Assembly: GCA_934140155.1 (NCBI GenBank)
Contig: CAKPBC010000001.1
Coordinates: 422,542 to 486,541 of the forward strand
Length of the DNA: 64,000 nt
Direction of reading: 5' to 3'
Source: an uncultured Bacilli bacterium
GTDB taxonomy: Bacteria; Bacillota_I; Bacilli_A; RFN20; CAG-826
Below are positions 40,081-45,518 of this stretch, one piece after another. The notes under the pieces were generated by a model, which worked only from the letters and a program-made list of their open reading frames with translations, made no database searches and was not told the DNA's origin. A program made the position numbers and the translations under genes. Numbering within the stretch: position 1 is the first letter of the stretch; each line of letters opens with the position of its first letter.

Positions 40081-41403
<1,323 letters not shown>

Positions 41404-41578
41404 TAACAACTAAAATCTAAATTAAAAAACTATTGAGTTGCACTAAAATTCAATAGTTTTTTTACGTTTAATTGCTGATTAAAAATGATAATTATATCTC
41501 CAACTCCAAAATATACTAAAATTAGTAGAATTTGGAGTTGAATAAAATTAAAAGATAAAAATACTTAGCAAAACCAAA

Positions 41579-41616
41579 TAAAAAACTGTTGAGCTTTAAA
41601 AACTCAACAGTTTTTT
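41579..41616. terminator. Bidirectional intrinsic terminator between eno and the SPFH gene
   Basis: AAAAA-ACTGTTGAG-ctttaaaaa-CTCAACAGT-TTTTTT. A/T runs on both sides. The minus-strand SPFH gene stops at 41625. Confidence 0.7.
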
Positions 41617-41624
41617 GCACTTAA

Positions 41625-42842
41625 TTATTCACCGGTACTTGGGTTAGAAGGGATGATAATATCAACATTATCTTTACCAGTCATAACACTAGGAAGTTTT
41701 CCATCCCATTTTTCTAAATATTCTAAGTATTTAACAAATTCTACAACGACATTTAAATCATCTTTTGTATGTGTTTCATCATATACAATAGAATATTTTG
41801 TACTTGCTAATGAAGTTGATATTGTAGTTTTAATTAAATTATCTTCCTCATAACTAACCATAACGCCAACGTTAGGATAAGTATCTATCTCTGATTCAAC
41901 TGTTTCTTTAGAAACTATTTCGTTAGTTTGTGTATTTTCTTTAATAGTTTCGACACTTTGAATATAAGTTTCATTTACTTTAAAACCTAATGATTTAGAT
42001 AATTCGACAATTTTTAAGGCCATAGCTTCAGCAGAAGCAGAAGCAATAATTTTTTGACTTTCGGCATCACCACGAGCGGCTTCAATTTTAGCTTGTGCAG
42101 TTAATTTTGCGACTTCTAATTCTTGTTCCGCTTTTGTAATAGCGGCTTCTTTTTGTTGCTCCGCGACCACTTTATCTTCGACGGCTTTTTCAAATTCATC
42201 GGTAAAATCAATATTAGTTAAGTTAACTGCAGTAACTTGCACATAATATTTATTTCCAACTGTTTCTTTAACAACAGTTTCAACTTCTGGAGATATTTTC
42301 GCTCTTGTTTCAATGATTTTCATCGCAGTGTATTTAGATAATATTGATTTTGTATTATCATCTGCAACTTTTTCAATTCTTTGTCCTAAAGAATCCATAT
42401 TTGTGTATTCAGTTAAAATATTTTCCGCTTTTCCAGGATCAATTTTAAATTGCACGGTCATTTGTATGTTCATAGTTTGAGCATCACTAGAATAAGAACT
42501 AGTGTTAATTTCTAATTTTTGTACAGTAGTATCAAAATATGTGTAATTTGTAGTTAAACAAAAATCAAAATATGTTCCTGGTAAACGAGTGCCAACTACT
42601 TTACCTAAACTTTTAACAACTGCGACTTGTCCAGCTTCAACTTGATGGAAAGATCCAGGTATTAAAATAGTTCCTATTAAAGAAACAAGTAAACCGATAA
42701 TAGAAATCTTATTGAGCTTCTTTTTATTACCGTTAGTTACATCAATAATTTTTCCTTTCTTTGTGTTGGTGGAAACCGCAATTCCTACCAAAAATAGAAT
42801 AATAAGTGCAGCAAAAACGACAAATAAAATAGACTTAATCAT
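41625..42842 (-). CDS. SPFH/band-7 (prohibitin/HflC/flotillin-like) membrane protein with long C-terminal extension
   Basis: N-terminal TM then VEAGQVAVVKSLGKVVGTRLPGTYF...QTMNIQMTVQFKIDP (SPFH core); coiled-coil AEQQKEAAITKAEQELEVAKLTAQAKIEAARGDAESQ. RBS AAGGAGG. Confidence 0.8.
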   Translation of the reverse strand: MIKSILFVVFAALIILFLVGIAVSTNTKKGKIIDVTNGNKKKLNKISIIGLLVSLIGTILIPGSFHQVEAGQVAVVKSLGKVVGTRLPGTYFDFCLTTNYTYFDTTVQKLEINTSSYSSDAQTMNIQMTVQFKIDPGKAENILTEYTNMDSLGQRIEKVADDNTKSILSKYTAMKIIETRAKISPEVETVVKETVGNKYYVQVTAVNLTNIDFTDEFEKAVEDKVVAEQQKEAAITKAEQELEVAKLTAQAKIEAARGDAESQKIIASASAEAMALKIVELSKSLGFKVNETYIQSVETIKENTQTNEIVSKETVESEIDTYPNVGVMVSYEEDNLIKTTISTSLASTKYSIVYDETHTKDDLNVVVEFVKYLEYLEKWDGKLPSVMTGKDNVDIIIPSNPSTGE

Positions 42843-42878
42843 AATTATTTTCCTCCTTGATTATAGTTTATTTCCATG

Positions 42879-42990
42879 AAAAAAGATCATGGGGTCTTAC
42901 CATGATCTTGCGAAATCTTTTATTGATTAGTAATCCCAGTTTTATCAAACGGGTGTGTTGAGATTACTCGAGTACGCTACTCCTCAGGTG
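42879..42990 (-). ncRNA. Structured ~110-nt leader RNA with its own promoter and an intrinsic terminator, directly upstream of the SPFH gene RBS (candidate riboswitch/attenuator or sRNA)
   Basis: Minus-strand promoter TTGAAA (43019-43024), 17 nt, TATTAT (42996-43001). Transcript begins ~GCACCUGAGGAG. Hairpins GAGUA-GCG-UACUC and AGUAAUCUCA...UGGGAUUACU. Terminator AGAUCAUGG-uaagacc-CCAUGAUCU then UUUUUU (42879-42908), about 20 nt before the RBS. Local GC is higher than the surroundings. Confidence 0.5.
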
Positions 42991-43168
42991 CTTTTATAAT
43001 ACCATAAATCTATAGCATTTTCAATATTTTTGCAAAAAATCGCTATATTATAAAAAATTATTATTAATCGATTCGATTGTTTTGCGTTTACTTAGAAATA
43101 GCCATTAATTCATTTTTATAACATTCATTTATTGTTATAAATGATTATTAATGATAATATTTTTATAA

Positions 43169-44170
43169 GTGAGGAAAATACTTGTGGATAATTATCTAGA
43201 TTTAATACTACCTAATGATTTTAAGACTTATATTGATGAACATCTTTATGAGCTTAATAAAGATGAAACAATAAATCTAGCTAGTAAATGTTATGAATTA
43301 GGTGTTGCAAATGAAAAAACATCAATAAAAGAAGAACATTTAAAAAACGCTTTAAGAGTATTGTATCATCTTCAAGAAATGTATGAGATTATGCCACCAG
43401 ATCTGTTTTTCAAAATAAATTATGAATTAATATTAATATATATTGATAAAAATGACGAAAAAGAAGTAAGAAATACTTATAAAATTGTTCGTGATTATTA
43501 TAGGTTTTTTGATGATGATTATAAAAAAACATGTGCTTATGGATTTTCTTGTGTTGCTTTTAAATATATGGAGTACTTGTATTCTATTAAAGATTATAAG
43601 GGCTGTTTATTCCCATTTGATGAAATTTTTGATGGATTAATAAAAAACACTAAAGACGAATCAATGAATTTGCTTGCAAATGCATTTGCGCTCGTATCTC
43701 ATATTGGGTTTATCTATAATTTTAAAGAAAAAGCATTAAGCTATATGAAAAATGCTCTTTCTTTAGTGGAAGTATTAAGCGATAGATTTAAAGATAAATA
43801 TTCGCAAATTGCTTTATTTACTTTTAATTCAGGTAATATTTGTTTACAAATGGATGATTATGATAATGCAATTAAATATTTCATTCAAGCAAAAGATGTA
43901 TGTAAAAATAATAAATTTGATGATTCTAATGATATGTTTGCTATGAGTTCTAATTATATGGCACAAGCTTTAGTGCTAAAAAAAGAATATGAAGAAGCTA
44001 TCAATGAATATAAAAATGCAATAGAGTACTTAAATAATAATGAATTAAATGAAAATAAACGTAATATAAATATTAAAGATTTTTTAAATCGAATTGGGAT
44101 TATATATGAAAAGTATTTAAATAATGAAGAACAAAGCAAAATTTATTATGAAAAGGCAGAAAAAATTTGA
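43169..44170 (+). CDS. Cytoplasmic TPR-like repeat protein (333 aa), non-ATG start (GTG at 43169 or 43184)
   Basis: All-alpha with TPR-like repeats (LQMDDYDNAIKYFIQAKDV, LVLKKEYEEAINEYKNAIEY, GIIYEKYLNNEEQSKIYYEKAEKI). No HTH, no signal peptide. RBS-like GTGAGGA before GTG 43184. Confidence 0.6.
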   Translation: MRKILVDNYLDLILPNDFKTYIDEHLYELNKDETINLASKCYELGVANEKTSIKEEHLKNALRVLYHLQEMYEIMPPDLFFKINYELILIYIDKNDEKEVRNTYKIVRDYYRFFDDDYKKTCAYGFSCVAFKYMEYLYSIKDYKGCLFPFDEIFDGLIKNTKDESMNLLANAFALVSHIGFIYNFKEKALSYMKNALSLVEVLSDRFKDKYSQIALFTFNSGNICLQMDDYDNAIKYFIQAKDVCKNNKFDDSNDMFAMSSNYMAQALVLKKEYEEAINEYKNAIEYLNNNELNENKRNINIKDFLNRIGIIYEKYLNNEEQSKIYYEKAEKI

Positions 44171-44262
44171 TATTAGCAATCAAATATGTGAACATTGTAT
44201 AAAAAAAGTTTTGATTATATGTTAATAAATTATTATAATAAAAAAGTAAGAGGAAAAATAAT

Positions 44263-44913
44263 ATGGAAAAAAATGTATTTGAAGAAGCTGCAAAAGCTTA
44301 TGTTGAAGTGATGAATACTGCAACGGAAATGTTTAAATTTCATCAACAATCTATGGCAAATGAAGGAAAAAATTTTGACGTTCGTGTTGGTTTAAATCAA
44401 CTTGATGTTATTATTCAATACTCTATGCTCCAAGTCGCTCTTAATGATGGTAATTTAGATGAAAACGAAGTAGGATTTATTAAGTCAATGTCACAATTTT
44501 GTGATTTTTGTGACTATTTAAATCAAGCTGGATATCAAGGCGTTACTTGGGATGTAATTTTTAACACTGATGAAAATTCTTTAAAAGAAGTATTAGAAGA
44601 ATCTAGAAAGTCAGTTATTTCTTTATCAGAGGATTTTGTTAGAGTATTTTCATTAATTGACGCAATGACAGAACATAATTATTTAGATGATTTATATAAG
44701 AACTTCTGCGCAATCATCGCTGGCATTATGCAAGCAGATGGAAAAACATATAAAGAAGAAGTAACAAATGGCTGCTTATTAGTAGATTTACTTAATGCTG
44801 TTAATGCCAAAAAGAAAGATTTTGAAAACATAATTGCTGCAAGAAATTCACAACCAAAAGAACAACCAAATGCTAAAAAATCATTAAAAGATTATTATGT
44901 AAAAAAAAACTAA
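44263..44913 (+). CDS. Hypothetical protein with possible TerB-like tandem D-G...E motifs
   Basis: 216 aa; RBS AGAGGA. Two segments LNDGNLDENEVGFI and IMQADGKTYKEEVTNG resemble the duplicated DGxxxxxE signature of TerB-domain proteins. Weak assignment. Confidence 0.35.
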   Translation: MEKNVFEEAAKAYVEVMNTATEMFKFHQQSMANEGKNFDVRVGLNQLDVIIQYSMLQVALNDGNLDENEVGFIKSMSQFCDFCDYLNQAGYQGVTWDVIFNTDENSLKEVLEESRKSVISLSEDFVRVFSLIDAMTEHNYLDDLYKNFCAIIAGIMQADGKTYKEEVTNGCLLVDLLNAVNAKKKDFENIIAARNSQPKEQPNAKKSLKDYYVKKN

Positions 44914-44963
44914 TTAATCTTGATTCAGATAAAAAGGTTAATTACAAAAATAAAGAAGAAGCT

Positions 44964-45518
44964 TTGGCTTATATAGAAACTGATACTGGTTCAGGATCCG
45001 GATTCATGATTACAAATACCGGTCTATGTTTTACATGTAATCATGTGATTAAAGGCTCTACGGAAATCTATGTTGGTTTAATTAATAGTGAAGGTAAAAA
45101 GACTGTTTATAAAGCAAAGGCATTAATTCAAAATGAAGATGAAGATTTTGCTGTTATTGAATTAGAAGATTGTGTTGATAATTATTTCTATGAATTAGAA
45201 TTTGATTATAAAACACTTAAAACAGGTAATGATGTTGCTATATTTGGTTATCCATTTGGTTCAGCTTTAAATGATGAAATAATGGAACTAGAGCCGTCAC
45301 TTACTAAAGGATATATTTCTTCTAAAAATAAAATCAATGGTCACATTTGTTATTACTTAGATATTAATTCCGCACCTGGCAATAGCGGTGGCCCAGTATT
45401 TTCTTTAGATACTAATAAAGTAATTGGCTATTTATGTGGATCATATGGTAATGATCGCTCGGATATCATCTTTATTAGGACATTAGAATATTTTCTAAAA
45501 AATTATTTAAAAGATTAA
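44964..45518 (+). CDS. Minimal trypsin/chymotrypsin-fold (S1) serine protease, no signal peptide, TTG start
   Basis: 184 aa. GSGSGFMITNTGLCFTCNHVI (His), DFAVIELED (Asp), GNSGGPVFS (Ser) in canonical S1 order. No N-terminal hydrophobic segment and no PDZ domain. Confidence 0.7.
   Translation: MAYIETDTGSGSGFMITNTGLCFTCNHVIKGSTEIYVGLINSEGKKTVYKAKALIQNEDEDFAVIELEDCVDNYFYELEFDYKTLKTGNDVAIFGYPFGSALNDEIMELEPSLTKGYISSKNKINGHICYYLDINSAPGNSGGPVFSLDTNKVIGYLCGSYGNDRSDIIFIRTLEYFLKNYLKD

Follow-up and report, generated by a model that had tools for sequence, protein, structure and literature searches.

In members of the yybP-ykoY family of riboswitches, Mn2+ stabilizes the helix P1.1 against invasion by a terminator strand, and the outcome is read-through (PMC6754395, PMC6649816). 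The Streptococcus pneumoniae mgtA leader, a member with a three-way junction, is such an Mn2+-ON antiterminator (PMC6649816). Work on the binding pocket revealed that A10 of L1 makes a cross-helix A-minor contact to a G-C pair of P3.1, that N7 of A41 in L3 is the sole base contact to Mn2+, the remaining ligands being phosphates, and that the A-G-A of the 3' strand of L1 is among the functional residues (PMC6754395, PMC6649816, PMC9190785). Here we analysed a stretch of 64,000 nucleotides (nt) from an uncultured Bacilli bacterium (CAG-826; contig CAKPBC010000001.1), referred to as the window, in which a leader RNA of about 110 nt precedes a gene for an SPFH/Band_7 protein. Both lie on the minus strand, and coordinates are given in window numbering. 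Our analysis indicates that this leader is very probably a riboswitch of the yybP-ykoY family (Mn2+-type) with a three-way junction that lacks P2, and that it would switch on transcription into the SPFH gene. The class, the architecture and the mechanism are already known; the SPFH target is new as far as can be checked.

The SPFH protein was scanned against one genome per GTDB species, which yielded 32 loci, and the 350 nt upstream of the genes were compared. Among the relatives were proteins with 98% identity in the uncultured Mollicutes UMGS1248 and 79% in Coprobacillus sp. CAG:826. We found that the leader precedes SPFH orthologues, at 39-98% protein identity, in 10 further metagenome-assembled genomes of gut Bacilli (loci with the leader: L001, L002, L004, L005, L007, L008, L009, L010, L016, L018 and L032). 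At L018 it is cut by the end of the contig, and at L032 (Anaeroplasmataceae) it is more diverged. No leader was found upstream of the SPFH gene at L006, L012-L015 or the Clostridia loci. The following blocks are conserved: GAGGAGUAGCG; UCAACAC, which lies in a long hairpin; a mini-hairpin, AAUC...GAUU; and CGCAAGAUC, which runs into the terminator.

These blocks carry the signature of the family. GAGGAGUAGCG, the bulged UCAACAC and CGCAAGAUC agree with the Rfam RF00080 consensus UUGGGGAGUAGCc / CGUCAACAUAC, and CGCAAGAUC agrees both with the 3' block of Escherichia coli mntP, GGCGAGACC, and with the consensus of 39 canonical RNAs, GCGAGACC. The latter were obtained by scanning a metagenome collection with the pattern GGAGTAG-N12-24-TCAWCA-N30-60-GCRAGAYC, which gave 120 stretches; in 43 of them a P1.1 helix closed the motif, and 39 were aligned after duplicates and two loci had been removed. 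RNAalifold recovered P1.1, P1.2, P3.1 and P3.2 and no P2 from this alignment; of the 23 pairs that it predicted, 16 show compensatory changes. The set can be taken as genuine, because the genes 3' of the canonical RNAs are the classical yybP-ykoY partners (GDT1/UPF0016 in 14 cases, P-type ATPases in 11, TerC in 6 and Na_Ca_ex in 3) and because five of 20 clear members reach E < 0.1 with RF00080.

From the 39 RNAs, none of which belongs to the SPFH lineage, we built a covariance model of 99 positions and 22 pairs (R1), and searched 268 kb comprising the window, 31 of the 32 SPFH loci and two E. coli loci. R1 matched the window at 42897-42992 on the minus strand with 38.3 bits (E = 7e-8; 2e-8 in a second search). 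The other SPFH leaders scored 36.6-48.5 bits, with the truncated L018 leader matched as well, and the E. coli mntP and alx leaders, both outside the training set, reached 35.8 and 31.0 bits. There were 14 matches at E <= 10 in the 268 kb, every one of them an SPFH leader, mntP or alx. The leader is homologous to validated Mn2+ riboswitches. The features of the locus are as follows.

42996-43024, minus strand: sigma-70-type promoter, with -35 TTGAAA at 43024-43019, a 17-nt spacer and a TG-extended -10 TATTAT at 43001-42996.
42984-42989, minus strand: 5' strand of P1.1, ACCUGA, half of the switch helix; pairs with 42905-42899 and is aligned to P1.1 of R1.
42978-42983, minus strand: 5' strand of L1, GGAGUA, equivalent to G8-G9-A10 of Lactococcus lactis.
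42975-42977, minus strand: 5' strand of P1.2, GCG; pairs with CGC at 42912-42910.
42969-42974, minus strand: 6-nt linker UACUCG, at the site of P2 in four-way-junction members and too short for a hairpin.
42929-42968, minus strand: whole P3 arm, made up of P3.1, L3, P3.2 and the loop.
42968-42959 with 42938-42929, minus strand: P3.1, 10 pairs, 8 of them compensatory, with 100% of cells paired.
42958-42951, minus strand: L3 bulge ACACACCC, whose conserved C42957-A42956 corresponds to C40-A41 of L. lactis; aligned to L3 of R1.
42950-42947 with 42942-42939, minus strand: P3.2, GUUU/AAAC, with loop GAUA; compensatory changes in 4 of 5 pair columns.
42914-42928, minus strand: P4 mini-hairpin AAUC-AAUAAAA-GAUU, in 10 of 11 leaders, always pairable and without compensatory change.
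42906-42912, minus strand: 3' strand of P1.2, CGC (42912-42910), and 3' strand of L1, AAGA (42909-42906).
42899-42905, minus strand: 3' strand of P1.1, UCAUGGU, whose bases also contribute to the terminator's 5' arm.
42879-42909, minus strand: intrinsic terminator (expression platform), AAGAUCAUGG-UAAGACC-CCAUGAUCUU, then a U-run.
41625-42858, minus strand: regulated gene including its Shine-Dalgarno (SD) sequence, with ATG at 42842 and stop at 41625, for a membrane-anchored SPFH/Band_7 protein of 405 amino acids (prohibitin-like).

A plain MAFFT alignment of the 11 leaders put P3.2, P4 and L032 out of register and was replaced by a structural alignment (A4), which was written by hand and padded with N. 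In A4, 93.8% of the cells of the aptamer fold are paired and 21 of 30 pairs show compensatory changes, distributed as 6/7 in P1.1, 3/4 in P1.2, 8/10 in P3.1, 4/5 in P3.2 and 0/4 in P4. The covariation score was 0.479 compared with 0.155 in shuffles, none of 500 reaching the observed value, and it was at most 0.096 when the partners were slid. P1.2 illustrates the exchanges, being GCG/CGC in the window, GCU/AGC at L016 and GAAA/UUUC at L032. Across the 11 leaders, every cell of the terminator (100%) is paired, and 4 of its 10 pairs are compensatory. An earlier note on this DNA, made from its letters, had proposed covariation across the leaders of SPFH orthologues as a check of its structured RNA, and these changes supply it. 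The same note had described two hairpins. The long one, AGUAAUCUCA...UGGGAUUACU, is fully paired in the alignment and has compensatory changes in 8 of 10 pairs; the short one, GAGUA/UACUC, is no helix of the aptamer.

Residues known to matter in the family proved to be invariant in 11 of 11 leaders, namely L1 GGAGUA (42983-42978), the C-A of L3 (42957-42956), one C-G pair of P3.1 (C42960 with G42937) and the 3' AGA (42908-42906). L1 GGAGUA occurs unchanged in the RF00080 consensus (GGAGUAG) and in E. coli mntP, and its A42981 corresponds to the A-minor adenosine, a role taken from published work (PMC6754395, PMC6649816). Family members have (A/G)-A-G-A on the opposite strand of L1, which AAGA of the window fits, and an L3 that forms an asymmetric bulge of some 7 nt separating P3.1 from P3.2. 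The C-G pair of P3.1, at columns 41 and 67 of A4, is also C-G in 38 of 39 canonical RNAs, and its position suggests that it is the A-minor receptor pair (PMC6754395).

The fold has a 6-nt linker in place of P2, and its P4 is only a 4-bp hairpin. A four-way junction with P2 and P4 is not a defining feature of the yybP-ykoY class. The idea that the absence of P2 marks a new variant was rejected, since forms lacking P2 have been published (PMC12153347, PMC6649816) and are common in metagenomes. In the metagenome loci (L034-L153), such aptamers commonly stand before GDT1, P-type ATPase and TerC genes in soil, sediment, sludge and gut samples. The published remark that alx-like members are restricted to Enterobacterales cannot, in consequence, be based solely on a missing P2. 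P4 is missing from L032, where 2790-2901 holds a still smaller yybP-ykoY aptamer, without P2 and P4. There P1.2 and P3.1 are joined by linkers of 9 and 5 nt, and the leader has its own terminator.

Several observations weigh against the assignment to this family, and we considered each of them. Rfam 15 gave no relevant match, either at the gathering threshold in the 64-kb window or at E <= 10 in a 421-nt slice (42780-43200). A blank over the aptamer at E <= 10 is what a new, undescribed riboswitch or attenuator class, or a protein- or tRNA-dependent attenuator, would give, and the earlier note had itself failed to match the leader to a class. We found that RF00080 gave the validated E. coli mntP leader (L033, 2462-2575) only 41.6 bits, short of the model's gathering score of 45, and that it missed 15 of the 20 clear metagenomic members, the five detected at E < 0.1 all lying below the gathering score too. 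As printed, the model has the consensus UUGGGGAGUAGCc, a 3-bp P2, a P3 with CGUCA|ACAUACU|... and P4, and no 3' strand of L1 or P1. Because RF00080 fails on the mntP control and on most clear members, the missing match is uninformative, and we rejected it as evidence of novelty. The Rfam scan that had been suggested as a check finds nothing; its result is misleading, the model being insensitive. All defining yybP-ykoY blocks and helices are present, and the score of the independent covariance model exceeds those of validated members, so that a new class is improbable to the point of being almost negligible. The signature blocks and the R1 score place the leader in the yybP-ykoY (Mn2+) class, which was not on the list that the note had checked. 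A blastn search of the leader against E. coli genomes gave no match. The failures of RF00080 also imply that annotation pipelines based on it will under-call Mn2+ riboswitches, members lacking P2 included.

Two further points concern circularity. The training set of R1 was gathered with a pattern derived from the motif of the window. In a control with the 81 pattern-matching loci outside the training set, real-looking riboswitches scored 28-71 bits, and about 60 chance matches in coding DNA scored at most 22.7 bits, mostly below the reporting limit of about 11 bits. Since loci that have only the pattern score no more than 22.7 bits, the pattern alone does not explain the score of the window. 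A4, in turn, was fitted to the fold by hand, which inflates its paired percentage; this is mitigated by the slid controls and by an independently made covariance-model alignment with identical helices.

The remaining points bear on the ligand as well as on the class. The pair of P1.1 that adjoins L1 is A-U in 10 of 11 SPFH leaders, compared with G-C in 39 of 39 canonical RNAs; L032 retains the canonical G-C. Band_7 was found in none of the 51 canonical contexts sampled, and SPFH is not a cation transporter. In the literature searched, with the gene tables of the 2015 primary papers outside it, no link of yybP-ykoY with SPFH/Band 7 was present. The association with genes of cation transport or Mn homeostasis (MntP, TerC, GDT1/UPF0016, P-type ATPase) is not seen at this locus; it is a typical feature of the class, not a defining one. 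A non-transporter target is not unprecedented, because YybP of Bacillus subtilis is a non-transporter, a lipoprotein of unknown function, and it was recently found to be physiologically important (PMC13598126).

The atypical, non-exporter gene association and the lineage-specific change from G-C to A-U at P1.1 could also be read as signs that the SPFH clade kept the yybP-ykoY fold and antitermination and shifted to another divalent cation (Ca2+, Fe2+, Mg2+ or similar). Positions 4-7 of L3 are, moreover, unlike those of L. lactis. Precedents point the same way, as some yybP variants are probably altered in specificity, which would explain odd gene associations (Sherlock and Breaker, PMC7266159), and in vitro the affinity of the S. 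pneumoniae aptamer is higher for Ca2+ than for Mn2+, no member being strictly specific for Mn2+ (PMC6649816). However, the residues that make base-specific or architectural contacts (the L3 A and C, the L1 G-G-A, the 3' AGA and the C-G receptor) are all unchanged across the 11 leaders. Phosphates provide the other metal contacts (PMC6754395), so base changes there tell little. The exchange at the top of P1.1 is clean and compensatory, alters both bases, lies away from the binding pocket and is expected to weaken the switch helix. Because the known core residues are all conserved, a shifted specificity is unlikely, and Mn2+ is the most likely ligand.

The promoter TTGAAA-17-TATTAT, which the earlier note had pointed out, has 10 of 12 matches to the consensus and an upstream TG, and orthologous leaders have a -35/-10 pair just upstream at an equal distance from the RNA. 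Promoter-like sites are not enriched in the surrounding AT-rich DNA (20 found, 27 expected from shuffles), and the call therefore rests on the quality of the site and on its conserved position. Transcription would start at about 42993-42990. The terminator was likewise found where it had been placed, about 20 nt before AAGGAGG. It has a 10-bp stem, AAGAUCAUGG/CCAUGAUCUU, at 42909-42883, a 7-nt loop and a U-run (U6) to 42879, and 20 nt separate the end of the U-tract from the SD sequence AAGGAGG (42858-42852), which is followed by the ATG at 42842. Five terminator-like sites occur in 41000-45000, compared with 1.2 expected. The leader folds at -28.3 kcal/mol (z = -3.0), beating 200 of 200 dinucleotide shuffles. 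Its GC content, reported earlier as relatively high, is 0.34-0.38, compared with 0.18-0.21 in the intergenic DNA 5' of the promoter.

We found that UCAUGG (42905-42900) is common to the 3' strand of P1.1 and the middle of the 5' arm of the terminator. Columns 102-107 of the alignment are used by both helices, and each helix shows compensatory changes. Because one strand serves both, P1.1 and the terminator are mutually exclusive. In nearest-neighbour calculations, which hold no tertiary or metal terms, the conformer with the terminator comes out 4-8.5 kcal/mol more stable than the aptamer for each of the 11 leaders, and the minimum-free-energy (MFE) fold includes the terminator in all 11. The view that this is a riboswitch or attenuator, already put forward in the earlier note, has gained from the compensatory changes in leaders before SPFH orthologues, from the terminator strand shared with an aptamer helix, and from the 6-11 nt that separate the U-tract from the SD sequence at L007, L008 and L010.

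From published work on the family we infer a metal-ON transcriptional (antitermination) switch. Transcription would begin a few nt 5' of P1.1. With metal absent, the 3' strand UCAUGG of P1.1, a weak helix, would pair downstream and complete the terminator, and RNA polymerase would halt at the U-run to leave an RNA of about 110 nt. When metal, most likely Mn2+, fills the pocket made by L1 (GGAGUA/AAGA) docking on L3 (the conserved C-A), it would stabilize P1.2 and P1.1, thereby blocking the terminator and allowing read-through into the SPFH gene.

The short hairpin GAGUA/UACUC forms between L1 and the linker UACUCG, which is complementary to L1 GAGUA, and 8 of the 11 leaders contain it in their MFE (OFF) fold. 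It lies outside the ligand-bound fold, because it overlaps the conserved, docked L1. A covariation test of GAGUA-GCG-UACUC showed none, and none is possible since the 5' arm is invariant. By these predictions the hairpin would belong at most to the ligand-free conformer. At L007 (2866-2887) and L010 (2862-2885) the linker has a different partner, namely the 5' flank together with the 5' strand of P1.1, and the two pairings differ by matching changes (UUGUAC/GUGCAA and UUUGUC/GACAAA). Both kinds of linker pairing may trap the 5' half of the aptamer while no ligand is bound, and such a trap is perhaps conserved.

A strong promoter and a strong terminator belong to the unit itself, and its terminated species is the predicted default product. 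On these grounds it could be primarily an independent, trans-acting small RNA of about 110 nt, with the SPFH gene adjacent by chance. A TATAAT at 42865-42860 might then give the SPFH gene a separate start. Such an RNA would not be expected to stay directly upstream of an SPFH orthologue, always on the same strand, over 39-98% protein identity, nor to be homologous to cis-acting riboswitches. At L007, L008 and L010, moreover, the SD sequence follows the U-tract after just 6-11 nt; because this leaves no room for another promoter, the SPFH gene at these loci has no promoter of its own and is expressed by read-through. The TATAAT in the window has no recognizable -35 and is not conserved. We therefore regard an independent small RNA, which the earlier note had offered as its alternative, as highly unlikely to be the primary role of the unit; it is a possible by-product and is not needed as an explanation, and we retain the riboswitch.

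The TATAAT itself is a perfect hexamer (42860-42865, minus strand) between the terminator and the SD sequence of the SPFH gene. It has neither a -35 nor a TG and is not kept in orthologues. As a second promoter before the SPFH gene, for which this lone hexamer was the only candidate in the window, it was rejected. It could provide basal, riboswitch-independent expression of SPFH in this species.

The regulon of the riboswitch is a single monocistronic SPFH gene. The gene has its own terminator in the window (41616-41580), and a terminator also stands 3' of the gene in 10 of 10 related loci; no operon partners were found, a terminator closing the gene at all loci examined. The protein matches Pfam Band_7 with E = 2.6e-32, and its closest solved relatives are prohibitins (prohibitin 1, E = 4.6e-12). 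Residues ~290-405, the C-terminal ~115, have no Pfam match, and the C-terminal motif EYLEKWDGKLP is kept as far as the Clostridia homologues that were used as scan patterns.

Bacterial SPFH proteins have poorly defined functions. As an RNA the leader is ordinary, being one more yybP-ykoY riboswitch of the known three-way-junction form. Its target, in contrast, is conserved over at least 11 gut Bacilli species, and the riboswitch gives SPFH a testable cue, namely induction by an excess of Mn2+. We lean towards the view that the SPFH scaffold is a dedicated, riboswitch-controlled member of the response to Mn (or other divalent-cation) stress in one clade of gut Bacilli, uncultured and low in GC (CAG-826-like, Erysipelotrichales and Anaeroplasmataceae). 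If true, SPFH/prohibitin cages would thereby be connected with the intoxication of the membrane by metal.

Divergent from the riboswitch promoter, 43169-45518 on the plus strand holds genes for a 333-amino-acid TPR-repeat protein, a 216-amino-acid protein without a Pfam match and a 184-amino-acid trypsin-like peptidase. No riboswitch link was seen for these three genes. No family reached its Rfam gathering score in the 64-kb window, which hence contains no tRNA, rRNA or other annotated RNA.

Among known systems, S. pneumoniae mgtA (PMC6649816) shares with the window RNA its origin in a Firmicute, the three-way junction, the L1 G-G-A, the L3 C-A and the 3' AGA, as well as the platform of an intrinsic terminator and metal-ON transcriptional read-through. 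The mgtA three-way junction, in the helix numbering of that paper, keeps a helix stacked on P1. The window RNA differs in having A-U rather than G-C at the top of P1.1 and a P3.2 and P4 of 4 bp each, and it controls an SPFH gene whereas mgtA controls a PII-type Mn2+/Ca2+ ATPase. E. coli alx (PMC12153347) shares the lack of P2 and the L1/L3 signature, scoring 31.0 bits with R1 compared with 38.3 for the window; however, it is a translational switch modulated by pH, with a long P4 that holds a pause/termination site and a TerC-family exporter as target. The Rfam model RF00080 ('Manganese', release 15) has the sequence blocks UUGGGGAGUAGCc ... CGUCAACAUAC in common with the leader, and differs in lacking the 3' L1/P1 strand and in expecting P2 and a long P4. 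The L. lactis yoaB and Xanthomonas oryzae riboswitches, known from crystal structures (PMC6754395, PMC9190785), are four-way junctions with P2 and longer P3.2 and P4, and they control cation transporter genes, in contrast to the SPFH gene controlled by the window RNA.

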